Assembly (NCBI GenBank): GCA_964391105.1
Contig: CAYMKC010000001.1
Location: forward strand, 1 to 63,986
From: an uncultured Thermoplasmatales archaeon
GTDB lineage: Archaea > Thermoplasmatota > Thermoplasmata > Thermoplasmatales > GCA-001856825
Reading direction: 5' to 3'
DNA: 63,986 bases
The position numbers and the translations under genes were made by a program. A model generated the notes under the pieces. That model did not search any database and was not told the DNA's origin. It worked only from the letters and a program-made list of their open reading frames with translations. Below, in pieces: positions 3,078 through 53,587 of this stretch; positions within the stretch are counted from its first letter, which is position 1, and every line of letters starts with the position of its first letter.

Positions 3078-3734
3078 GTGAGCGGGCCAGTAATCAGCTT
3101 AGGCGGATCCATATTTTCCAAGGCTGACGAAAAATATCTCATGGAGTTCATCGAGAGGATCAAGAAAGAGGGAGAGTATGCACTAGTTGTCGGGGGAGGA
3201 CCCATTGCGAGGGAAGAGATTTCCAAACTCAGGAACCTTGGCGCTAAGGAGTATTACTTGGATATGATGGGAATACAGGCTACACGCCTAAATGCGACAA
3301 TGGTATCGCTGGCACTTGGCAACCTGATGGAAATTCCTAGATCCATCGACGAGGCCGTCAGGCAGATGAAGCTCTACAAGAGAGTGATCATGGGAGGAAC
3401 AGAGCCAGGTCACACAACTGATGCAGTCACCCTCCTGTTGGCAGAAGCCATAAGCAGGGATACTGTGGTGAACGTAACGAACATCGATTATCTGTACGAC
3501 CGCGACCCTAAGATCAAGGGAGCTAAGAGGATCGAGAGACTGTCCTATTCTCAGGCCGTTCACCTTGCGAGTTCCGAGACGAGAGGAGCGGGGCAAAACT
3601 TCCCCCTGGATATACTGTCCCTGAACATTGCAAGAAGGAGCGGCATAAAGGTTAAGATTGTCTCTTTCCGAGATCCACAGAATGCCTTCGATGCGATCAA
3701 GGGAAAGAAGTTCAAGGGGACTACTGTTTCCTAA
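3078..3734 (+). CDS. pyrH: UMP kinase, archaeal type
   Basis: Amino-acid kinase fold with ISLGGS, VVGGGPIARE and GGTEPGHTTD. GTG start. Confidence 0.9.
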   Translation: MSGPVISLGGSIFSKADEKYLMEFIERIKKEGEYALVVGGGPIAREEISKLRNLGAKEYYLDMMGIQATRLNATMVSLALGNLMEIPRSIDEAVRQMKLYKRVIMGGTEPGHTTDAVTLLLAEAISRDTVVNVTNIDYLYDRDPKIKGAKRIERLSYSQAVHLASSETRGAGQNFPLDILSLNIARRSGIKVKIVSFRDPQNAFDAIKGKKFKGTTVS

Positions 3735-3767
3735 CAAGTTGGCTAAAAATGAGCAGAAGTCGCTCTA

Positions 3768-4601
3768 TCAACGGGCGACAAATACCGAGACAATTATTAG
3801 AACCGTGAAGAGGAAGTGTATAGCGACCGAATAATTTGTCTGCCTCGCGATCTTGAGGGGTGATCTGGGTAGATACACCACGTGAACGAGCGAGGCTATG
3901 AAGACAATTATGGCGGCAATCACCAGGTTATCGGAAACGGAAATCATGATAGATGCTGTAACTAGCATGATGGGGTAGACGGTTCTGAAGTGTCGGATCC
4001 TTCTCCCTCCTTCCCTGTCTTCAGGTAGGTGATGAAGATACCTGATCGACGAAGCTAACACTCCCAAGCTGAGGGACACAAGTACATCGGTCAGCGATAT
4101 GCTCTGATTCAATGCTATAATCGTTCCCAAGACCGGAAATGGACCAAATGAGAAGAAGGTTGAAATCTCCCCAATCCCCCTGGTACCCAGTCTTATTGGG
4201 GGCAAAACGTAGAGCAGCGATAGGAATACCGCTGTTAGTCCCAGACCCAGTAGGAGGAGACTTCCTGTCAGGTATACCACGAGGAGACCAACTACTACCG
4301 CTATGGATATCATCAAAATGAAAGTGAACCTAATCAGTTTCGGATTAACCCCCATTTTTTCTATGAAATAAGAACCGAGGGGGAAGAGGGTATCTTCGTT
4401 TCTCAGGAACCGGCCGCTCGAATGATCAAAAAAGTCCATTGCGAGATTCATCCCGGCCTGCATAGAAACTGTGACAACCAAGAGCATGAGGACGAGGTAC
4501 GAAGTCCTGAATTGCGATAATGCCCAGCCGATAAGGATCGGGCTGATGCTGGTGAAGTAGATGGGTGCCTTCAGGCCCTTTATGAGGTCACTCGCCTTCA
4601 T
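3768..4601 (-). CDS. menA: UbiA-family prenyltransferase, MenA-like (1,4-dihydroxy-2-naphthoate polyprenyltransferase)
   Basis: 277-aa polytopic membrane protein with the Asp-rich motif NLAMDFFD. It lies near the UbiE/MenG gene. Confidence 0.65.
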   Translation of the reverse strand: MKASDLIKGLKAPIYFTSISPILIGWALSQFRTSYLVLMLLVVTVSMQAGMNLAMDFFDHSSGRFLRNEDTLFPLGSYFIEKMGVNPKLIRFTFILMISIAVVVGLLVVYLTGSLLLLGLGLTAVFLSLLYVLPPIRLGTRGIGEISTFFSFGPFPVLGTIIALNQSISLTDVLVSLSLGVLASSIRYLHHLPEDREGGRRIRHFRTVYPIMLVTASIMISVSDNLVIAAIIVFIASLVHVVYLPRSPLKIARQTNYSVAIHFLFTVLIIVSVFVAR

Positions 4602-4670
4602 GTTCAGGACCTATCCCCTGACTTTATAATTAAGTTTTTATCAAAAATTAGGGTGCGGGCAATACCGGAG

Positions 4671-6353
4671 TCACTTTCTTGAAGAATGGAGGTACCTGTA
4701 TATCATGAATATGAGTTTCTTCTCGCTCATAGTTGAAGATCCCCACATAATCTGTTTTTTTAAAACGGTGTACTTGTCTCCGCAGGTTCTGATGAGAGCT
4801 TCCCCCTTGGCCATCATTCCGTAATCTCCCACCCTCGAGAGTCTCACGGCGAGCCTACTACTTTCTAGCACGTGATGCGACCTCAGATATTCTTCACCGT
4901 CTATGTAACCAAGCTCTTGCTTTTCCTTCAGGAGTGTATCGATGGCATCGTATGTGGTTTCAACTATAGTCTTCCTGTCCATCCAGTTCGTTTCGTAGTT
5001 CAAAAAGTCCTCCCATGTCCTTCCTTCGTCGAGTCCCCTGTAGTGTTCCATCATTGTCCTGAACCTCAGCTTGTATCCCATCGCTGGGTTCTCAAAAGAC
5101 TTTGAACCCGGATCAAGGAAAGGCGAAAGTGGTGAAGTGAAAACGAACAATCTCTTGTCCTTGTTGTTTGATACCATAAGGCGTTTTGCATACTTCACAT
5201 CGTCCATCACGTCGTCTCTGGTTTGTCCACTGAGCCCAACAATGAAATAGACGTCCATCTTCTTCCCGCCCAGGTCCAAGAAGTCGTGGACGAATTTCTC
5301 CAATTCCTTGTTTCCGTATGGTCTGCCATTCTTGAATCTAATGTTATCGTTGGAGGAGTCTGGAGAGATCTCCATAGAAACGTCCCAGGTTGCATCCATA
5401 AGTTTCTTCACTCGCTCCTTCGGGTGGGGGACGAAAACCTCCATCAGTAGGGGGATGTCCATTCCCTCCTTCTTCAAGTTGTCAAATATGTAGTCAATCT
5501 CCTTATCCGACCTCATTAGGAGATCTCCCGCGATGAACACCGGAATCTTCAGGTCATCGTTGATTCTCATGATGTCTTCAACAATTCTCTTTGACGATCT
5601 GTATAGCGGACCACGTCTCTGATAAAAATTCTTGAACGTAAAGTAGGAGCCGCCGCAGATTCCGCAACTGTACGCACAGCCGTGCGTAGATAGCACCATC
5701 GCGACTGGTTCCTTCATCCAGTCACAGTAGGGGAGGTGCCCAGATATGTCCATGGTCTTTATGGAGCTGCGTATTATCTGTGAATAATCAAATTCCTGGT
5801 AGTCCATATCGGGAGTGAAGGTGAAACCATTGTCCTTCACCTTTCCATCTTCTCTGTAGATCGCGTTAGGAATGTTCTCCATCTTCTTTCCTGCTAGCAC
5901 CATTTCCATCGGCTGTTCGGTGGTATCTCCCCGGATAACCAGATCGACATCTTTCACCCTGGACATTATTTCGGTTGCGTAGTACGTTGCAGAGAATCCC
6001 CCCAGCATGACCTTAATATCGGGCCTCTCCTCTTTTATTATCCTGGCGAGGTTCAAGGCGCCATGGACGTGAGGAAGCCAGTGAAGGTCTATCCCTATGT
6101 ATTCTGTGTCGAGCTTCAGCAGTTCCTCGTTGAAATTGTACCTCTTAGAGCCCAGCATTTTTAGAGCTACGTTGTCTATCCTGGCCCTATAACCCCTTGA
6201 GTTAAGGTACGAGAGGATGGCAAGAAACCCTATGGGATACATCTCAAATACGCCAGTGCTTGGGACCAGTTCAGAGATTGGACCTGCGACAATTTCCCTC
6301 TTCCTGAAATCGTATATCGAAGGAGGGTGCATCAGCACGAGGTCGTATTTCAC
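4671..6353 (-). CDS. B12-binding-domain radical SAM protein (class B), function unknown
   Basis: 560 aa. The N-terminal region looks like a cobalamin-binding domain. The CX3CX2C cluster motif is in HGCAYSCGICGG. Confidence 0.85.
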   Translation of the reverse strand: MKYDLVLMHPPSIYDFRKREIVAGPISELVPSTGVFEMYPIGFLAILSYLNSRGYRARIDNVALKMLGSKRYNFNEELLKLDTEYIGIDLHWLPHVHGALNLARIIKEERPDIKVMLGGFSATYYATEIMSRVKDVDLVIRGDTTEQPMEMVLAGKKMENIPNAIYREDGKVKDNGFTFTPDMDYQEFDYSQIIRSSIKTMDISGHLPYCDWMKEPVAMVLSTHGCAYSCGICGGSYFTFKNFYQRRGPLYRSSKRIVEDIMRINDDLKIPVFIAGDLLMRSDKEIDYIFDNLKKEGMDIPLLMEVFVPHPKERVKKLMDATWDVSMEISPDSSNDNIRFKNGRPYGNKELEKFVHDFLDLGGKKMDVYFIVGLSGQTRDDVMDDVKYAKRLMVSNNKDKRLFVFTSPLSPFLDPGSKSFENPAMGYKLRFRTMMEHYRGLDEGRTWEDFLNYETNWMDRKTIVETTYDAIDTLLKEKQELGYIDGEEYLRSHHVLESSRLAVRLSRVGDYGMMAKGEALIRTCGDKYTVLKKQIMWGSSTMSEKKLIFMIYRYLHSSRK

Positions 6354-23257: not shown

Positions 23258-24190
23258 CTAGAAGGTGTCCAGTTTGTCCTTTATCTGAAGGTACCCGTCC
23301 TCTATTCTCTTTGTCTGTTCAGCAGAGAGTCTCCATCCATTCGATTGAAGGTTTATTGTTGCCTGATCCCTGTTCTTGGCGCCGGGGATCGGTATGACAT
23401 TTCCCCTCGAAATCAACCAGTTCAGTGCAAGCTGGACCACGGAGTGACCTGTCTCGAGTGAGATCTCCCTGAGCACAGAAAGGAAGGTAGCTATACTGCT
23501 GATGTTCGGTTCTGAAAACAACTTGTTGCTCTTCCTCACGTCAGTTGGTTCCAGGTTGGCGTGATCGTACTTGAAAGTCAGTAGACCCTGAGCGAGAGGT
23601 GAATAAGCGATTACGCTTATCTTCTCCTTGTTGAGGTATGGTAGCATCTCTTCCTCAATTTCCCTCTGCAGTATGTTGTATCTGACCTGGTTAGAAACTA
23701 TGTCCATGTTTGAAAGGTAAGACCTTGCCTCTTCGATCTGGCAAACGCTGAAATTAGAGAGCCCTATGTACCTTATCTTCCCGTCGTTCGCCATTTTTTC
23801 CAGAGTCTTCATGGTCTGCTTGATCGAGGTGTAAATGTCTGGCCAGTGTAGCTGATAGAGATCTACGTAGTTCGTGTTCAACCTCTTGAGGCTGCCATCA
23901 AGTGCCCTCTCTAGATATTCAGGTTTCAGGTGACCTCCTGATGCCTTGGTTGCAATGATAATCTCGTCCCTGATGTCTTTTATGACCTCGCCTATTACAG
24001 ATTCGGAGTGACCATCACCGTATACCTCAGCCGTATCAATGAAATTCAGTCCCATTTCTATAGAAGTAAGAATTGCATTCTTGACGTCGGAATCGACTAT
24101 CTTTCCCCAGCCCTTGGCACCTGCCTGCCAAGCACCGAGACCAATAACAGAAACTTTTAGATCAGATTTTCCTAGATTTGTATATTCCAT
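23258..24190 (-). CDS. Aldo/keto reductase
   Basis: AKR fold landmarks: FIDTAEVYGDGHSE, DLYQLHWPD and IGLSNF. Confidence 0.85.
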   Translation of the reverse strand: MEYTNLGKSDLKVSVIGLGAWQAGAKGWGKIVDSDVKNAILTSIEMGLNFIDTAEVYGDGHSESVIGEVIKDIRDEIIIATKASGGHLKPEYLERALDGSLKRLNTNYVDLYQLHWPDIYTSIKQTMKTLEKMANDGKIRYIGLSNFSVCQIEEARSYLSNMDIVSNQVRYNILQREIEEEMLPYLNKEKISVIAYSPLAQGLLTFKYDHANLEPTDVRKSNKLFSEPNISSIATFLSVLREISLETGHSVVQLALNWLISRGNVIPIPGAKNRDQATINLQSNGWRLSAEQTKRIEDGYLQIKDKLDTF

Positions 24191-24243: not shown

Positions 24244-25335
24244 ATGAGAATCATAAAAAATTCAAGCGTCCTTTCACAGGATTACATCCCCGAAACCATC
24301 ATAGGAAGAGAGGAACAGATCGCGAGGCTCAGAGATCTGATCAGGGGCAGCGATGTCTCATCCGCTTTCATAGTGACCGGAAATCCGGGGACGGGGAAGA
24401 CGTTGATTGGGAAGTACCTGCTCAAGGAAATGAAGGAATTCAAGACCGCATATGTGAACTGTTACATCAACCAAACAGACAGGGCAATAGTCTCAACGAT
24501 TCTCAACAACCCCAACATACGGCTCCCAGAGATAGGCAGCACTAGATCCGAATCCCTCTCGAGTCTCCTGTTCAGGGAGTTGCCAGAGCGGAACAACCTG
24601 ATAGTGCTTGACGAGACTCAATCCCTTAAGAGGACTCATCCCCAGATAGTTTATGCTCTTTCAAGAAGCAAGGAGCTTGGTGGCCCCGAGGTGAAACTTG
24701 TAATGTTCTCGATGGAAGAACCGGAAGTGTATCTTGACAAGAGCACTCTGTCGGGATTGGGAAGATACAACAGATTCGCCCTGAAGGAGTACGACGCGGA
24801 AGAGCTCTACAGGATCATATCTGCTAGAGCGGAAGGGGCCTTCTATGAAGGCTCATACTCCGAATTGGCCCTCCACAGAATATCAGAGCTTGTCGAGGAG
24901 AATGGAAGTGCCAGGATTGCCCTGGAGTTGTTGAAAAATTCCGCACTCTTCGCGGAATCTGGGAATGTGTTCCTGGACGAGGAAGCCGTACTGGAAGCGT
25001 ACAGGGACTTCTCGCCTCCGTTGGAGGAGAGTTCTCTCATAAGCATGGAAGATGAAGAGATCGAGTTACTCAAGTCCCTGCTGGAAGGAGTCAAAGAAAG
25101 GCGCAGTTTCAGAACTTCAGATCTAAGGAGCATCGAGAGCGGTATTAGCGATTCGAAGATTTACAAATTCCTCAAAACGATGGAGACATCGGGCCTCGTA
25201 AAGAAGAGCAAGATAGGAAAGGGATATTCCGGAGGTGTCGAGAACGAATACATCCTCAGAGTGTCGCCACAGATTCTTCTCAGCAAGTTAGAGCTGATGG
25301 AGAAAACACAAGAGTCCTATAGAAAGGAGACGTGA
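24244..25335 (+). CDS. cdc6: Orc1/Cdc6 replication initiator paralogue 1
   Basis: LSQDYIPETIIGREEQI, Walker A GNPGTGKT, Walker B IVLDETQ, and a C-terminal winged helix. The start is set at MRIIKNS; the ORF-track start at 24178 would overlap the divergent AKR gene. Confidence 0.85.
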   Translation: MRIIKNSSVLSQDYIPETIIGREEQIARLRDLIRGSDVSSAFIVTGNPGTGKTLIGKYLLKEMKEFKTAYVNCYINQTDRAIVSTILNNPNIRLPEIGSTRSESLSSLLFRELPERNNLIVLDETQSLKRTHPQIVYALSRSKELGGPEVKLVMFSMEEPEVYLDKSTLSGLGRYNRFALKEYDAEELYRIISARAEGAFYEGSYSELALHRISELVEENGSARIALELLKNSALFAESGNVFLDEEAVLEAYRDFSPPLEESSLISMEDEEIELLKSLLEGVKERRSFRTSDLRSIESGISDSKIYKFLKTMETSGLVKKSKIGKGYSGGVENEYILRVSPQILLSKLELMEKTQESYRKET

Positions 25336-25402
25336 GCAGAACCGAGCTGTTATACGTTGAAAGTTCGAAAAGCTTATATATTGTCATATTAATGTCATTT
25401 AT

Positions 25403-25954
25403 ATGTCAGACAATTTCAGAGTTCTCGGTATTGGAGGTGCCGGTGTCAACGTGGTAAGGGAGCTTGGGTATAGAAATTCCGCTTACATAGATTCTTCGAG
25501 TTTTGAGACCCTACAAGGGGTAGAGGAATTCATTAAAGGACAGGGGAGGAACGAGAAGGTTGTAATAGTATCGTCTCCGGCAGGAGGATTCTCTTCTATG
25601 GTCCTGAGAACTGTCTGCAATGCGCTAAATTCTAACGGAAATAGAGTATACCTCATCGGCATTCTGCCGTTTCATAGCGAGTCCCCTGAGAGAAAAAAGA
25701 GGGGAGAGGTAGTACTGAGGGAGCTAGGAAATTCAGTAGAGACAACGGAGATCGTGGACAACGAGAACTTTGCATCATCTATGAGGGAATACGGGTGGAC
25801 ATTTGCGATGTCAAAGATCAACGAGTACGTCGGTGGTCTGGTCAGGGATCTCGTGATTCAAGGTGATGAGAGAGAAACCATCAAGGCGAAAGAAGTACCC
25901 ATTGAGCGCGGGCAGGGAATGTTTGTCCCAAACCAGAGTGTGTCGATGAACTAG
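25403..25954 (+). CDS. FtsZ/tubulin-superfamily protein with the N-terminal domain only and a degenerate tubulin signature
   Basis: 183 aa. It aligns by eye to the N-domain of the bona fide FtsZ in this window: FRVLGIGGAGVNVV vs [29 protein letters not shown] vs [31 protein letters not shown] vs [15 protein letters not shown], and TTEIVDNENF vs [10 protein letters not shown]. Confidence 0.7.
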   Translation: MSDNFRVLGIGGAGVNVVRELGYRNSAYIDSSSFETLQGVEEFIKGQGRNEKVVIVSSPAGGFSSMVLRTVCNALNSNGNRVYLIGILPFHSESPERKKRGEVVLRELGNSVETTEIVDNENFASSMREYGWTFAMSKINEYVGGLVRDLVIQGDERETIKAKEVPIERGQGMFVPNQSVSMN

Positions 25955-26038: not shown

Positions 26039-26974
26039 ATGCTAGTAAAGCAGACGGCATTTGGAAATACTCCGCTATTGTTTGCAAAGAATCTTGGAAA
26101 GTCCATCAACGTGGCTGGGTTATACCTCAAGTGTGAGGGCTCAAACCCCACAAAAACACAGAAGGACCGTCCCGCATCCCTCCACGTCAGGAGGGCAATA
26201 GAGAGGGGACACGATACGATAGTAGTGGGCAGCTGCGGAAACTATGGAGCGGCAATAGCATATTATGCACTCTTGAGCCACATCAAGGCACGCATCTACA
26301 TTCCAAAAGGGTTCCACTCTCCCAGGTTGAGGGAGATAGAAGAGAAGTATGGCGCGAAGTTGATCTTGGTAGAGGGGATGTACGAGGATGCAGTGGAGGC
26401 AAGCAAGCGGGATTCAGAATCCAACGGATGGTTTGACGCGAATGCAGGCGCTTATCCAGAACTCGGCCTGGAAGCCTACGCTGAAATTGCGTACGAGATC
26501 ATGGGTTCAACGAGAAAGGTTCCAGCGACCGTATCCGTTCCTGTTGGAAACGGGACGACGGTTGCAGGCATCTATCACGGTTTTGCAAAACTGAAAAGGG
26601 ATGGGATCATCGACAAAGTACCCAGGATGATCGCGGCCAGTACAGATGGCGGCAATCCAGTAGTTGAGAGTTTCAGGAACGGGAATGATTCGATCAGAGA
26701 TTTCCCCAGGGAGAGGATACACGAAACGGACATAAACGAAGCTCTCGTTAACTATCATTCATACGATGGAGAGCTGGCTTTCAAGGCGCTCGTAGACTCG
26801 TATGGGTACGCGGAGTATGTGACAGATAGAGAGTTGATGGAGTTTGTAGAATCGCTCAGGGTTCAGGAAGGAATAGAGTCTATACCACCAGCCGTCTCAT
26901 CCATAGCAGCGCTCTCTCACATCGCTAGAAGAAATACTGTCGCCGGAATAAACGTTGCAGTCCTGACGGGCTGA
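26039..26974 (+). CDS. Fold-type II PLP-dependent enzyme (threonine synthase / Trp-synthase-beta-like)
   Basis: PLP-lysine motif NPTKTQKDR and glycine-rich SVPVGNGTTVAG. Confidence 0.7.
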   Translation: MLVKQTAFGNTPLLFAKNLGKSINVAGLYLKCEGSNPTKTQKDRPASLHVRRAIERGHDTIVVGSCGNYGAAIAYYALLSHIKARIYIPKGFHSPRLREIEEKYGAKLILVEGMYEDAVEASKRDSESNGWFDANAGAYPELGLEAYAEIAYEIMGSTRKVPATVSVPVGNGTTVAGIYHGFAKLKRDGIIDKVPRMIAASTDGGNPVVESFRNGNDSIRDFPRERIHETDINEALVNYHSYDGELAFKALVDSYGYAEYVTDRELMEFVESLRVQEGIESIPPAVSSIAALSHIARRNTVAGINVAVLTG

Positions 26975-29103: not shown

Positions 29104-29189
29104 TACATGAGGCGTGGGATATTTATCCGTTTTGGTAAAAGACTTGATAAGAAACGGTTTTAATAAGGTAACTTTTCTGTTATTATATC

Positions 29190-30446
29190 ATGGTAAATTC
29201 ATCCAAAAACTTGTTTGAAAAATTCACTAGTACATCTCTGATAGTTAAAGGGCAGAGACAAGCACTCGAGCCTGGTTTCATTCCGGACAGGTTGCCACAC
29301 CGCGAGGAGGAAGCGGAACAGCTTGCAGAAATACTGTCCCCATCCCTGAGGAATTTCAAGCCTTCTAATGTTATTATCTTTGGCAAACCAGGAGTAGGTA
29401 AGACTAGCGTCGTCAAGTTTGTCGAGAGCGAAATTTCCAAAGCGATCCAATCTAGACTGGATACAAAGATCAAGATCATAGACGTGAACTGCGGCGTTGT
29501 AGACAGCCCGTACGGAGTACTCTTGTCGGTGGGAGATGGGTTGCTTGAATCGTGGGAAGAAAAGCTCCCTTTTACGGGCTGGCCGCTGGATAAACTGTAC
29601 AACACCGTTCTGGAGAAGATAAAGTCCTTCGCGGGCATCGCAATAATAGTCCTGGACGAGATAGACAAGCTGGTGAAAAAGAGTGGTGACTCCGTCCTGT
29701 ACCAGCTTCTCAGGATAAACGAGGTAACGAATGAGGGAAGGGTCAGCATACTCGGAATAAGCAACGATCTGCGGTTCACAGAATACCTAGACCCGAGGGT
29801 CAAGAGCAGGTTGATCGAGGAGACTATGGTCTACAACCCGTACAACGCATCTCAGATCTATGACATTCTGAGAGACAGATCACTATATGCTGGGATAGCC
29901 GACTCAATTGACGAGTCCGCAATGAAGACGTGCGCCGCTCTTGCTGCTCAAGAGCATGGAGACGCCAGGAGAGCGATCGACATGCTCAGGATAGCTGTGG
30001 AGATTACGGAGAAAGACAAAGAAAAGAGGATAGTGGACGACACGATTTACGAGGCGAAGAAGAAGCTGGAGAGAGATGTTGTGGTGGAAACGGTATCAAC
30101 CCTCCCGCTTCACAGCAAACTCGTCCTGTTTTCCATATCTCTCATAGACGAGATCAAGAACGGTGGGAGCTCCACGATGGGCGAATTCTACGACCTCTAC
30201 GAAAAGATCGCGGACAGGATGAGCATGACCGGGCTCACGCAGAGGAGAGTAGCCGACATCATAGGTGAACTGACGAACCTCGGACTGATAGACTCCAGGG
30301 TCCAGAGTTTCGGTAGGTACGGAAGGACAACGACCGCATCTCTAAACTACGGTTCGTCCAAGATAAAGGATATACTTCTCAGCGATGAGATTCTGGCACA
30401 GCTCAGGGACGTTAAACCACTTCAGAAGTCGTTGCCGGATTCATAA
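29190..30446 (+). CDS. cdc6: Orc1/Cdc6 replication initiator paralogue 2
   Basis: FIPDRLPHREEE, Walker A GKPGVGKTS, Walker B IVLDEIDKL, GDARRAIDMLR, and a C-terminal winged helix. Confidence 0.9.
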   Translation: MVNSSKNLFEKFTSTSLIVKGQRQALEPGFIPDRLPHREEEAEQLAEILSPSLRNFKPSNVIIFGKPGVGKTSVVKFVESEISKAIQSRLDTKIKIIDVNCGVVDSPYGVLLSVGDGLLESWEEKLPFTGWPLDKLYNTVLEKIKSFAGIAIIVLDEIDKLVKKSGDSVLYQLLRINEVTNEGRVSILGISNDLRFTEYLDPRVKSRLIEETMVYNPYNASQIYDILRDRSLYAGIADSIDESAMKTCAALAAQEHGDARRAIDMLRIAVEITEKDKEKRIVDDTIYEAKKKLERDVVVETVSTLPLHSKLVLFSISLIDEIKNGGSSTMGEFYDLYEKIADRMSMTGLTQRRVADIIGELTNLGLIDSRVQSFGRYGRTTTASLNYGSSKIKDILLSDEILAQLRDVKPLQKSLPDS

Positions 30447-51680: not shown

Positions 51681-52772
51681 CTACATCACCGAGTCAATTT
51701 CTGCGTCTAACCCCTTAGCACCCTTTATCGAAACTCCCTTTGAGGAGTTGAGGAAGTAAGGAGAGTTAACACCCGTAAGAACTACGAGCACTTTGAATTC
51801 TCCAACCAGAGTTGGATCTACCGATGCACCCCAGACTATTCTTGCCATGGGGTTCACCTTTTCTTGTACCATTCTAACAGCAGTCTCAGCCTGAGATACT
51901 GTCATGTCCTCTCCACCAACTATTCTGACCAGTGCACCCTTTGTGGTAGAGATGTCTGCCTCTATAAGCGGAGACGTAATCGCCTCAGTAACAGCCTCTT
52001 CTACTGACGCCTTTCCTCCCGTACTCTCACCAATTCCAATCATTGCGACACCTCCCTCTTTCATTACCGTCTGAATGTCCGAATAGTCTAGATTGACGAG
52101 TCCCGGTCTAGTTATGATTTCGGTAAGTCCTTTCAGGGACTCCATAAGAATTTCATCCGCAACCTTGAATGCCTGGTCCAGAGGCAGCCTTGGTACAAGC
52201 TCCAAGAGCTTGTCGTTTGGTATCACAATCGTAGTATCTGAATTTTTTCTGAGTCTGTCTATTCCGTAGACGGCGTTGTCCATTCTGACTCTCCCCTCTG
52301 CGGAGAATGGAAGCGTTACTATGCTGATCACGAGTGATTTCTGACGTTTTGCTACTTCGGCAACCACCGGTGCCACTCCCGTTCCTGTTCCTCCACCCAT
52401 ACCGGAAGTTATGAAGACTATCTCCGAGTTTCCTAGAGTTGATTGTATATCGTCTAGGTCTTCACGCGCGGCCTCTTCTCCTACCTGTGGAATGGCTCCC
52501 GCTCCGAGCCCCCTGGTTGTTCGTTTACCGACCAGTATCTTTCTGTTGGCCTGTACTGTTAGGAGGTGTGGGGCATCGGTATTCATTGCAATGAGTTCAG
52601 CACCGAATATGCCAGATTTGGCACAGCGGTTGATTGTGTTAGTTCCCGCTCCACCGCATCCAACAATTCGGATATTCACTTTCATGGACTCTACTAGCTT
52701 GGCTAGTTCTTCGTCATCCGGAGAAATATAATTCCTCTGGCCTTGAACTGGATAATTGTCTGGCATAATCAT
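51681..52772 (-). CDS. ftsZ: Cell division protein FtsZ
   Basis: GCGGAGTNT, tubulin signature GMGGGTGTG, and NDKL. The C-terminal domain is present. Confidence 0.95.
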
Positions 52773-52819
52773 ACGTATGTCTGACGGCGTATTTATATTT
52801 TTCTCAATTATCCTTGAAT

Positions 52820-53587
52820 TTAACGCTTTTCTAGGTCGTCTGACCCATAGAATAATTTTTGAAGATGGGAGTAAATGTCTTCCAGTCCGTCCTCTGACTC
52901 CGAAGATGAAAAGACGCTCTCTCCTAGAATGTTCAGGCTATGGCTTCCTCCAAGTATAGCCTCGGAGAGCTGCACATTCAGTGTCGCTGACTCGGCTCTT
53001 AGGTCTCCAAGAAGCTCGTCCTTGTTCTTGTCCCATTTCTTGATTCTCTCCACTTCCTTTGGTTCAAGAAGATCTGACTTTGAAACGACGCTTAGGAAGG
53101 GTATGTAGAACCTAGTCATCACGCTCATAGCAAGGAACCTCGAGGAAACGTAGGACTCTGGATTCTTCATTAGGACAGAATCGAACAGGTAGATGAGGGC
53201 ATTGGCATCTTCCCCTAGGGAAGTGATCAGCTGTGAAGAGGAACCCCTGAAGGCGAAGAGTTCTAGTTGACCAGGGGTATCTATCAGAGTGTAGTCAGAA
53301 TCGTATGAATCTATGAGCTCTCGTATCCTATCCCCTTCCTGAACCATCAAGTCTGCAGCCACTATCTGTGCCCCATTCGGGCCCAAATTGTAATTCTGCA
53401 TGACGCTCTCCAGCGACACGTTCTCGCGTATGTCGATGTCTGGCGTGTACGGCAGGAATTCGGCACCTGGATCAAGGTTGACTGTTATTGCATCGTAACT
53501 CATGTTCTCCATCCATTCTTTGAATGATTTTACAAGGGTCGACTTTCCCGACCCAGCAGTCCCTACAAAGTATACCCTAGGTATCAT
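52820..53587 (-). CDS. GPN-loop GTPase
   Basis: P-loop GTAGSGKST, NLDPGAE, the GPNG loop and DTPGQLE. Confidence 0.85.
   Translation of the reverse strand: MIPRVYFVGTAGSGKSTLVKSFKEWMENMSYDAITVNLDPGAEFLPYTPDIDIRENVSLESVMQNYNLGPNGAQIVAADLMVQEGDRIRELIDSYDSDYTLIDTPGQLELFAFRGSSSQLITSLGEDANALIYLFDSVLMKNPESYVSSRFLAMSVMTRFYIPFLSVVSKSDLLEPKEVERIKKWDKNKDELLGDLRAESATLNVQLSEAILGGSHSLNILGESVFSSSESEDGLEDIYSHLQKLFYGSDDLEKR

Follow-up and report, generated by a model that had tools for sequence, protein, structure and literature searches.

A conserved FtsZ-family protein lacking the C-terminal domain, encoded beside an Orc1/Cdc6 paralogue in uncultured Thermoplasmatales

Contig CAYMKC010000001.1 of an uncultured Thermoplasmatales archaeon (assembly GCA_964391105.1) was analysed over positions 1 to 63,986, a stretch that we call the window. 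At 25403-25954 on the + strand it encodes a 183-residue protein, referred to here as mini-FtsZ, which by fold and by profile is a member of the FtsZ/tubulin superfamily made of a Rossmann-like N-domain and the core helix H7. The gene is real and under purifying selection, and about 30 orthologues are found in total, all of them from metagenome-assembled genomes (MAGs) of uncultured Thermoplasmatales-related archaea. It is named ‘hypothetical protein’ at NCBI and, automatically, ‘cell division GTPase FtsZ’ at JGI, and literature searches found no published description of the family. An original prediction, made from the DNA letters alone, had proposed an N-domain-only relative of tubulin and FtsZ with a degenerate nucleotide signature, and this description holds. 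The open reading frame (ORF) that it delimited also stands, with an ATG start, the stop codon included and a product beginning MSDNF.

Results

Profile and structure searches converge on FtsZ

Aligned pairwise by BLASTP with the canonical FtsZ of the window (FtsZ1), mini-FtsZ matches over the T1 block alone (E 0.002). Among library profiles, the Pfam Tubulin family (PF00091) matches residues 38-125 only, with an E value of 3.3e-7 and 31.2 bits, just under its 33-bit gathering score, and the NCBIfam ftsZ model TIGR00065 gives 18.5 bits against a cut-off of 295.2, which places the protein below the canonical FtsZ equivalog. A profile of 25 family members searched against PDB sequences lists 48 chains, 47 of them FtsZ and one a CetZ deposited as FtsZ; the best sequence match is 1w5f (E 6e-6). 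Alignment of the family to a full-length FtsZ alignment with hhalign covers residues 4-162 at 99.3% probability (E 1e-20) and recovers the blocks around T1, T4, T5 and T6 that had been picked out by eye.

The structural evidence agrees. The AlphaFold2 (AF2) model of mini-FtsZ has a mean predicted local distance difference test score (pLDDT) of 78.6 and a predicted template modelling score (pTM) of 0.74, with residues 156-183 predicted to be disordered. When this model is searched against the PDB with Foldseek, all 50 of the best matches are FtsZ (E 3.5e-7, TMq 0.54-0.69). The similarity to the FtsZ N-domain is therefore borne out by Pfam, by the profile-against-PDB search, by hhalign and by Foldseek alike, and the concern that the protein might belong to a different Rossmann-like family has been answered, since no competing family of that kind appears in the profile or fold searches. 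The same searches find no similarity to any enzyme family. The hidden Markov model (HMM) of the mini-FtsZ family scores the window’s FtsZ1 at 23 bits only, and mini-FtsZ is therefore not a recent or decaying copy of that gene.

A conserved nucleotide face without T3, T7 or the C-terminal domain

Residue numbers below are those of the window protein, FtsZ correspondences are taken from hhalign and invariance is judged from an alignment of 25 sequences; the family has 36 invariant alignment columns. The T1 loop, G9-I-G-G-A-G-V-N16 (25427-25450, +), is intact and aligns with GCGGAGTN of FtsZ1, and its residues G9, G11, G12, A13, G14 and N16 are invariant. The retained strand AYIDSS (A26-Y-I-D30) is either S2 with a T2-like invariant Asp30 or S3, so that the earlier reading of YIDSS as an S2-type match may be right, although hhalign places the strand at S3. 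About 36 residues are missing relative to FtsZ in the hhalign comparison, 23 from S2/T2/H2 and 13 that include the GLGAG T3 loop. T3, the GxGxG sensor of the γ-phosphate, is thus deleted along with its neighbouring strand and helix, as had been foreseen.

Strand S4 and a degenerate T4 loop, V56-S-S-P-A-G-G-F-S-S-M-V67 (25568-25603, +), stand where GGGTGTG would be expected, and the tubulin signature GGGTG[ST]G is not found in mini-FtsZ. Within this segment S58, P59, G61, F63 and S64 are invariant and A60 and S65 nearly so. The earlier claim of a degenerate T4 is correct, but its register is not: hhalign sets GGGTGTG opposite G61-G-F-S-S-M-V rather than PAGGFSS, with P59-A60 opposite G-M, and the family consensus is G-x-F-S-S-x-V. 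The T5 loop and the start of H5, I87-L-P-F-H-S-E-S-P-E-R-K-K-R-G101 (25661-25705, +), rank among the family’s two best-conserved stretches, with P89, F90, E93, S94, P95, E96, R97, R100 and G101 invariant and the Glu and Arg of FtsZ retained. In the T6 loop and H6, V118-D-N-E-N-F-A-S-S-M127 (25754-25783, +), N120 aligns with the T6 Asn of FtsZ (IPND) and N120-E-N-F lies opposite N-D-K-L; N120, E121, N122, F123, A124, S125 and M127 are invariant.

The folded part stops at the core helix H7, residues 132-155 (25796-25867, +), which the AF2 model extends as a helix over 132-162 and whose N140, nearly invariant, aligns with the H7 Asp of FtsZ. Beyond it lies a disordered, fast-evolving C-terminal tail of 28 residues (156-183; 25868-25951, +; pLDDT <50) that evolves almost neutrally and ends in a conserved Asn, present in 20 of 21 full-length sequences of 181-183 or 175 residues. 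The C-terminal domain with its T7 loop (NxDxxD) is absent, in keeping with the prediction that the protein would end before it.

Every invariant block thus sits in a loop of the nucleotide face. Since the remnants of the pocket are invariant or nearly so (T1 with GxGGAGxN, the ribose-binding E93, R97, N120 of T6 and N140 of H7), some ligand binding could persist, and judged from these residues the nucleotide pocket does not appear to be simply dead.

A selected gene in a fixed chromosomal slot

Against its closest orthologue (locus L001), mini-FtsZ has a ratio of nonsynonymous to synonymous substitution rates (dN/dS) of 0.145. The core accounts for the constraint, with dN 0.066 and dS 0.748 (dN/dS 0.09), compared with dN 0.356 and dS 0.575 in the tail. 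A truncated architecture and degenerate motifs are what a functionless, decaying fragment of an ftsZ duplicate would show, and the original prediction had left room for such a pseudogene. The frame, however, is intact at 173-183 residues in more than 25 species, the invariant columns are preserved, the core evolves under the constraint just given and the promoter is conserved. With about 30 orthologues and an overall dN/dS of 0.15, we discard the pseudogene explanation and consider its chance of being right negligible.

Searches of a set of 5.8 billion proteins returned 25 homologues at E <1e-39, nearly all of 173-183 residues. An exhaustive HMM search of 1.84 billion representatives gave six family clusters at E <1e-26, followed by a gap to E 1e-11. 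Two peptide-pattern scans of GTDB contigs, with one genome per species, found the gene in 23 species, all represented by uncultured Thermoplasmatales/Thermoplasmata MAGs and including the ‘I-plasma’ of acid mine drainage; one record had been deposited as ‘Methanobacteriota archaeon’. None of the 23 species belongs to a cultured genus, in scans that rest on peptide patterns and do not prove absence elsewhere. A contig scan with the canonical Orc1 of the window returned the same clade and then Methanoregula and Thermococcus (about 44% identity), and gave no locus from cultured Thermoplasmatales, which does not establish absence there.

Gene order was compared over 22 loci with readable flanks, namely the window and 21 others. 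In all 22 it runs from a dCMP deaminase through an aldo-keto reductase (- strand), a divergent Orc1/Cdc6 gene and mini-FtsZ to a canonical Orc1/Cdc6, with a SpoU methylase (- strand) and a FolC-type ligase between the last two, preceded in the window’s subclade only by a pyridoxal phosphate (PLP)-dependent enzyme. The synteny survey thus finds the slot next to an Orc1/Cdc6 paralogue, noticed at first in one genome, in every locus. In 21 of the 22, mini-FtsZ lies directly behind the Orc1 paralogue on the same strand at a gap of 23-94 nt, down to 33% protein identity; in the window the upstream gene stops at 25335, leaving the 67-nt spacing originally reported. Downstream, the PLP-dependent enzyme gene (26039-26974) is present in L001-L013, the window subclade, and absent in L014-L021, and was therefore a later insertion into the block. 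No gene of the block evolves faster than mini-FtsZ, whose mean distance of 0.83 compares with 0.18-0.66 among its neighbours; the Orc1 paralogue comes next.

The locus that departs from direct adjacency is L013, a single MAG in which an insertion of three unrelated genes (3337-5815) parts mini-FtsZ from the Orc1 paralogue: a 359-residue ORF, a short-chain dehydrogenase-like ORF and a helix-turn-helix-containing ORF. Despite the insertion, the conserved promoter stays with mini-FtsZ.

Longer orthologues suggest stepwise reduction

Six deeper-branching orthologues have 245-260 residues (loci L016 and L018-L021, with the gene at 6001 or 8001; proteins P0025, P0027, P0028 and P0174-P0177). The AF2 model of P0025, a protein of 252 residues (pLDDT 77.6), places a compact β-α-β-α-β-β domain behind H7 at residues 165-229, and in Foldseek it spans whole FtsZ chains over about 303 columns (E 7e-14, TMq 0.70). 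The long forms already lack T3, already carry the G-x-F-S-S version of T4 and have in common a conserved P-S-E motif close to their C-terminal end. In an alignment by eye that is not robust, GL[YF][HT]S[ES]G stands at T7 where FtsZ has GLxNxDFxD, and the acidic residues of T7 look mostly lost.

In a neighbour-joining tree the long forms branch off at the base as a paraphyletic set, with the short forms derived; monophyly of the family is supported by 100 of 100 bootstrap replicates and that of the short forms by 42 of 100, which suggests, at that level of support, a single loss of the C-domain. No relic of a C-domain was detected downstream of the short genes, the best tblastn match there having E 0.46. 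The miniature C-domain of the long orthologues argues for a stepwise reduction and suggests that forms of about 250 residues represent the ancestral state of the 183-residue protein, with T3 likely lost first, then the catalytic residues of T7 and finally the C-domain.

A near-invariant promoter with phased TGTCA repeats

Over the 55 nt that precede the ATG, the 22 copies compared (the window and 21 loci) hardly differ and show no insertions or deletions. An upstream box, GTTATACGTT (25349-25358, +), stands equally far from the ATG in each of the 22, with the one-base variants GTTATACATT, GTTATACGCT, GTTATACGTC and GTTATACGTA in six of them, and its exact form occurs once in the window. About 8 nt behind this box follows a purine run resembling a B recognition element (BRE) and then the TATA box, GAAAAGC TTATATAT (25367-25381, +). 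The claim that mini-FtsZ has its own promoter is confirmed by the conservation of this region: the TATA box itself, TTATATAT at 25374-25381 and about 26 nt before the ATG, is kept in orthologous loci as TTTAAATA or TTATATA. Such a spacing implies a leaderless mRNA.

Three direct TGTCA repeats with an 11-nt period follow (25382-86, 25393-97 and 25404-08, +), the third overlapping the start codon within ATGTCAGAC, which encodes M-S-D. They are near-invariant in the 22 copies even as protein identity drops to 33%, and they are probably an operator that overlaps the transcription start of a leaderless gene. Constraint at the DNA level may account for some of the invariance seen in the N-terminal MSD. 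In the most divergent orthologue (P0177; L021, 8001-8771) the annotated start lies 11 codons too early, so that the conserved TATA box and TGTCA repeats are translated into the spurious N-terminal extension MFKYCHNNVIF.

Outside this promoter, TGTCA-N6-TGTCA and GTTATACGTT occur in the window at chance frequency. A collection-wide scan for the operator gave five matches with a Thermoplasmat- name among the 80 matches listed, all on contigs known to carry mini-FtsZ, and no Rfam family matches the conserved upstream region. Anchored promoter identity is highest for mini-FtsZ in the block (0.76, against 0.44-0.65 for the others). The notion that such conservation is unique to mini-FtsZ was partly rejected, as both orc1 promoters also hold long conserved blocks.

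Two Orc1/Cdc6 genes and a canonical FtsZ1 in the window

The divergent Orc1/Cdc6 paralogue (24244-25335, +) encodes 363 residues from a conserved ATG and is the upstream neighbour at all 22 loci; the mechanical ORF opens at a TTG at 24178, overlapping the divergent reductase gene. Its product matches Pfam Cdc6_lid and AAA, with no Pfam match to WHD_Cdc6; Walker A (GNPGTGKT) and Walker B (LDE) are both intact, and TIGR02928 scores it at 140 bits, under the 181-bit cut-off. The family of this paralogue comprises 35 matches at E 6e-80 or better before a jump to 5e-19, and this partner gene is confined to the clade that carries mini-FtsZ.

The canonical Orc1/Cdc6 (29190-30446, +; 418 residues; 370 bits with TIGR02928) lies 3.2 kb downstream in the same block and is 65-95% identical across loci. 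Upstream of it, at about 29110-29150, 20 loci share a nearly invariant 36-nt block, TTTTGGTAAAAGACTTGATAAGAAACGGTTTTAATA, with the inverted pair CCGTTT...AAACGG; it could serve as a promoter, an operator or a site for Orc binding. We found no convincing origin-type repeats or skew switch close to the two orc1 genes, and no larger origin-like repeat set.

The canonical FtsZ lies at 51681-52772, on the - strand, a correction to the original prediction, whose identification of the gene as a genuine ftsZ is secured by Pfam (Tubulin 161 bits, FtsZ_C 92 bits) and by TIGR00065 (388.5 bits, above the 295.2 cut-off). It is FtsZ1-like and the candidate target of mini-FtsZ. In the interval 51681-53587 (-) it is preceded, after a 47-nt gap, by a GPN-loop GTPase gene (PF03029), and it is followed by a methionyl-tRNA synthetase; its neighbours include no ribbon-helix-helix (RHH; cdrS-like) gene, consistent with a locus of the FtsZ1 type.

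Comparison with known FtsZ-related systems

Mini-FtsZ shares with canonical FtsZ (TIGR00065; PDB 1w5f, 1fsz and 3voa) the N-domain fold in the order S1-T1-H1...S4-T4-H4-S5-T5-H5-S6-T6-H6-H7, an intact T1, the Pro-Phe and Glu of T5 and the Asn of T6. The overall layout, in which a globular part leads through a disordered linker to a short conserved motif at the C-terminus, is also reminiscent of FtsZ. Unlike canonical FtsZ, it lacks about 36 residues including T3, carries G-x-F-S-S-x-V in place of the signature and has neither C-domain nor T7, and the GID tail motif of archaeal FtsZ is absent from it. The CetZ structure 4b45 matches weakly (E 0.17-0.3), behind many FtsZ chains, and none of the 50 Foldseek matches listed is a CetZ. 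Nor does mini-FtsZ resemble TubZ or PhuZ: it has no match in plasmid, phage or viral collections, its locus is chromosomal and syntenic, and its best match in BFVD is a phage FtsZ at E 1.5e-3.

The closest functional precedent, as an analogy only, is ARC3 of plant chloroplasts, with an FtsZ-like domain, a middle region and MORN repeats; it too has an incomplete FtsZ-derived domain. According to a preprint (bioRxiv 10.1101/2024.01.08.574726), ARC3 carries an FtsZ-like domain, binds FtsZ and directly inhibits Z-ring assembly without itself forming rings. It differs in being a eukaryotic, multi-domain protein of the chloroplast Min system, whereas mini-FtsZ is a single domain with a tail. A sub-stoichiometric block of filament ends, as proposed below for mini-FtsZ, is also known from FtsZ bottom-interface mutants, in which a subunit with a working top face alone caps the growing (bottom) end (PMC8936486), and from the end-cappers MciZ and MipZ, described as blocking filament ends sub-stoichiometrically (PMC9897490). 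The mutants, however, are laboratory constructs, MciZ and MipZ are unrelated proteins, and capping by mini-FtsZ is inferred for a top face that lacks T3.

FtsZl1 has a divergent FtsZ-like N-domain and no canonical C-domain, and the authors who described it questioned whether it polymerises (Makarova & Koonin 2010, PMC2875224). T6-H7 is missing from FtsZl1, whose N-domain is followed by a coiled coil and an α-helical C-domain (PMC2875224), whereas mini-FtsZ keeps a conserved T6-H7, lacks T3 and has neither coiled coil nor helical domain, and so does not belong with FtsZl1.

The exhaustive HMM search also yielded many unrelated FtsZ-like proteins of 146-220 residues that end after H7 and lack T3 (among them P0030, P0031, P0041, P0048 and P0058; loci L131 and L254-L257). 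Their contexts include an integrase with XRE genes (P0030), an XRE gene (P0031) and an operon of unknown genes (P0041). P0031, P0041, P0048 and WP_400152262.1 of Candidatus Methanarcanum hacksteinii have the same outline as mini-FtsZ, several of them with a T4 of the form GGxF[GS][ST]; these short proteins are 17-27% identical to it, occur in different hosts and contexts and keep the canonical T5 PFxFEG. The Methanarcanum gene (P0181; L132/L133, 4486-5621) encodes 206 residues of N-domain only and stands directly behind a small RHH-type gene in this methanogen, a Methanomassiliicoccales-type archaeon of the class Thermoplasmata, an arrangement that hints by analogy that truncation of FtsZ2 may recur in this class. 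N-domain-only derivatives of FtsZ seem to be a recurrent theme, and our searches found no characterised member among the other short ones.

Discussion

In FtsZ, the active site of one subunit is completed by the T7 loop of the next, and the C-domain that mini-FtsZ lacks carries this loop together with most of the ‘bottom’ polymerisation face. With T3, T7 and the C-domain missing, mini-FtsZ should be unable to activate GTP hydrolysis in a neighbouring subunit or to extend a filament. The loops of its nucleotide-side, or ‘top’, face, T1, T4, T5, T6 and the start of H7, are strongly conserved, which points to docking through this face. The surface docked on would be the T7 face of FtsZ1 where it is exposed, at the growing end of a filament or on a free FtsZ1 monomer. 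We tentatively favour, from the sequence, a reading of mini-FtsZ as an FtsZ derivative without GTPase activity or the ability to polymerise, which binds FtsZ1 filaments at their growing end and is held under tight transcriptional control. Docking would cap or sequester FtsZ1 and act as a sub-stoichiometric brake on, or modulator of, Z-ring assembly, and the short conserved motif at the end of the disordered tail could tether it to a further partner. A factor bound to the three TGTCA repeats between TATA box and start codon would control expression, with the adjacent Orc1/Cdc6 paralogue a candidate for that factor or for the upstream signal; the result would be a link from DNA replication or damage status to division. 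Precedent exists for both halves of the scheme: FtsZ mutants of the bottom interface are toxic cappers, the bottom (T7) end being the one that grows (PMC8936486), and the archaeal Orc1/Cdc6 paralogue Orc1-2 is a transcription regulator rather than an initiator (PMC6061795). The presence of a canonical FtsZ1 on the same genome fragment also favours it.

Several observations weigh against this proposal. T3 is part of the longitudinal interface of FtsZ and its loss means that the top face is not intact, while the invariant Phe of T4 (F63), standing where FtsZ has Gly, makes GTP binding uncertain. The 23-bit score of FtsZ1 with the family HMM provides no hint that the two proteins co-evolve or share a recent origin. 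The link to the Orc1 paralogue is affected as well: in a mirror-tree analysis its partial correlation with mini-FtsZ (r 0.545) is not specific, the unrelated SpoU reaching 0.548, and the three genes inserted in L013 separate the pair in that genome. Finally, no exact TGTCA-N6-TGTCA occurs elsewhere in the 64-kb window, including upstream of ftsZ1. With SpoU equally high, the mirror-tree co-evolution signal was rejected as evidence.

A different partner would follow if mini-FtsZ and the divergent Orc1/Cdc6 paralogue formed a two-gene module acting on DNA, in replication initiation, segregation or transcription control, with mini-FtsZ a nucleotide-dependent cofactor of the AAA+ protein instead of a partner of FtsZ1. 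The two genes are adjacent on one strand at 23-94 nt in 21 of 22 loci, down to 33% identity, both families share the narrow clade-restricted distribution, both evolve fast and a canonical orc1/cdc6 lies 3.2 kb away. Yet the entire 10-kb neighbourhood is collinear, which makes adjacency alone weak evidence; mini-FtsZ has its own conserved promoter, three genes separate the pair in L013, the mirror-tree signal is no stronger than that for SpoU and neither origin-type repeats nor a skew switch lie nearby, and we regard such a module as somewhat unlikely, though it is the foremost competitor of the capping reading. It is decidedly unlikely, in our view, that mini-FtsZ is instead a highly derived FtsZ2, serving as a non-catalytic co-subunit or modulator of the division ring and not as an inhibitor. 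The long orthologues are compact two-domain FtsZ folds, the Methanarcanum N-domain-only protein behind its RHH gene recalls cdrS-ftsZ2 (PMC7439475), and the family HMM gives that protein 31.5 bits compared with 23 for FtsZ1 of the window. Mini-FtsZ, however, has no adjacent RHH gene, the 183-residue form lacks the bottom face and could only terminate a co-polymer, and the best matches of the HMM outside the family are short FtsZ-like proteins in unknown or mobile-element contexts, not archaeal FtsZ2.

That last context would fit a domesticated maintenance module of a mobile element, with an Orc1-type initiator, a tubulin-like partition protein and TGTCA iterons as the former centromere, now in a different or residual function. 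The top match outside the family, P0030 (199 residues, N-domain only), adjoins a phage-type integrase and XRE regulators on a contig with an ORC-CDC6-like gene, and P0031 adjoins an XRE gene. Direct repeats upstream of a tubulin-like gene recall the tubC iterons, as a lead only. Searches of viral contigs, BFVD and phage or plasmid collections nevertheless yielded no relative, PHROG and PADLOC give no match, the locus has no integrase, its GC content is 0.464 against about 0.47, and the gene keeps a fixed slot among housekeeping genes in all genomes, which leaves this origin a slim chance; a defence-system, phage or plasmid origin likewise found no support in searches of those collections. We judge it just as improbable that mini-FtsZ is a repurposed small-molecule sensor or enzyme that binds something other than GTP in its remodelled pocket and has no cytoskeletal link. 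Its pocket loops are the most conserved and carry fixed differences, P59, F63 and S64-S65 in T4 and H-S-E-S-P-E-R in T5, and several short, unrelated FtsZ-like proteins have a similar T4, GGxF[GS][ST]. Set against this, the searches point to no enzyme family and no metabolic gene travels only with mini-FtsZ, the downstream PALP gene being absent in the deeper-branching loci.

The capping reading can be taken further, to an archaeal division checkpoint built from FtsZ itself, in which a filament-terminating, GTPase-dead fragment stays silenced by an operator over its transcription start until impaired replication or DNA integrity leads to its release by, or along with, an Orc1/Cdc6 paralogue that is not an initiator. 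In this full form we think it unlikely. If true, the checkpoint protein would be a functional analogue of SulA or ARC3, and one that arose by stepwise amputation of an FtsZ paralogue, losing T3, T7 catalysis and the whole C-domain in that order. Little is known of negative regulators of archaeal FtsZ or of how replication is linked to division in archaea that use FtsZ, and a natural, conserved ‘top-face-only’ FtsZ would serve as a probe of filament polarity and capping and would be a candidate regulator in wall-less acidophiles. The near-invariant promoter with its three phased TGTCA repeats offers a testable regulatory handle. Even if it bound neither FtsZ nor the Orc1 paralogue, mini-FtsZ would be an unannotated, clade-defining gene. 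The family offers a graded natural series, from two-domain forms without T3 to the N-domain only, in which a cytoskeletal GTPase appears to have been whittled down to a non-polymerising module.

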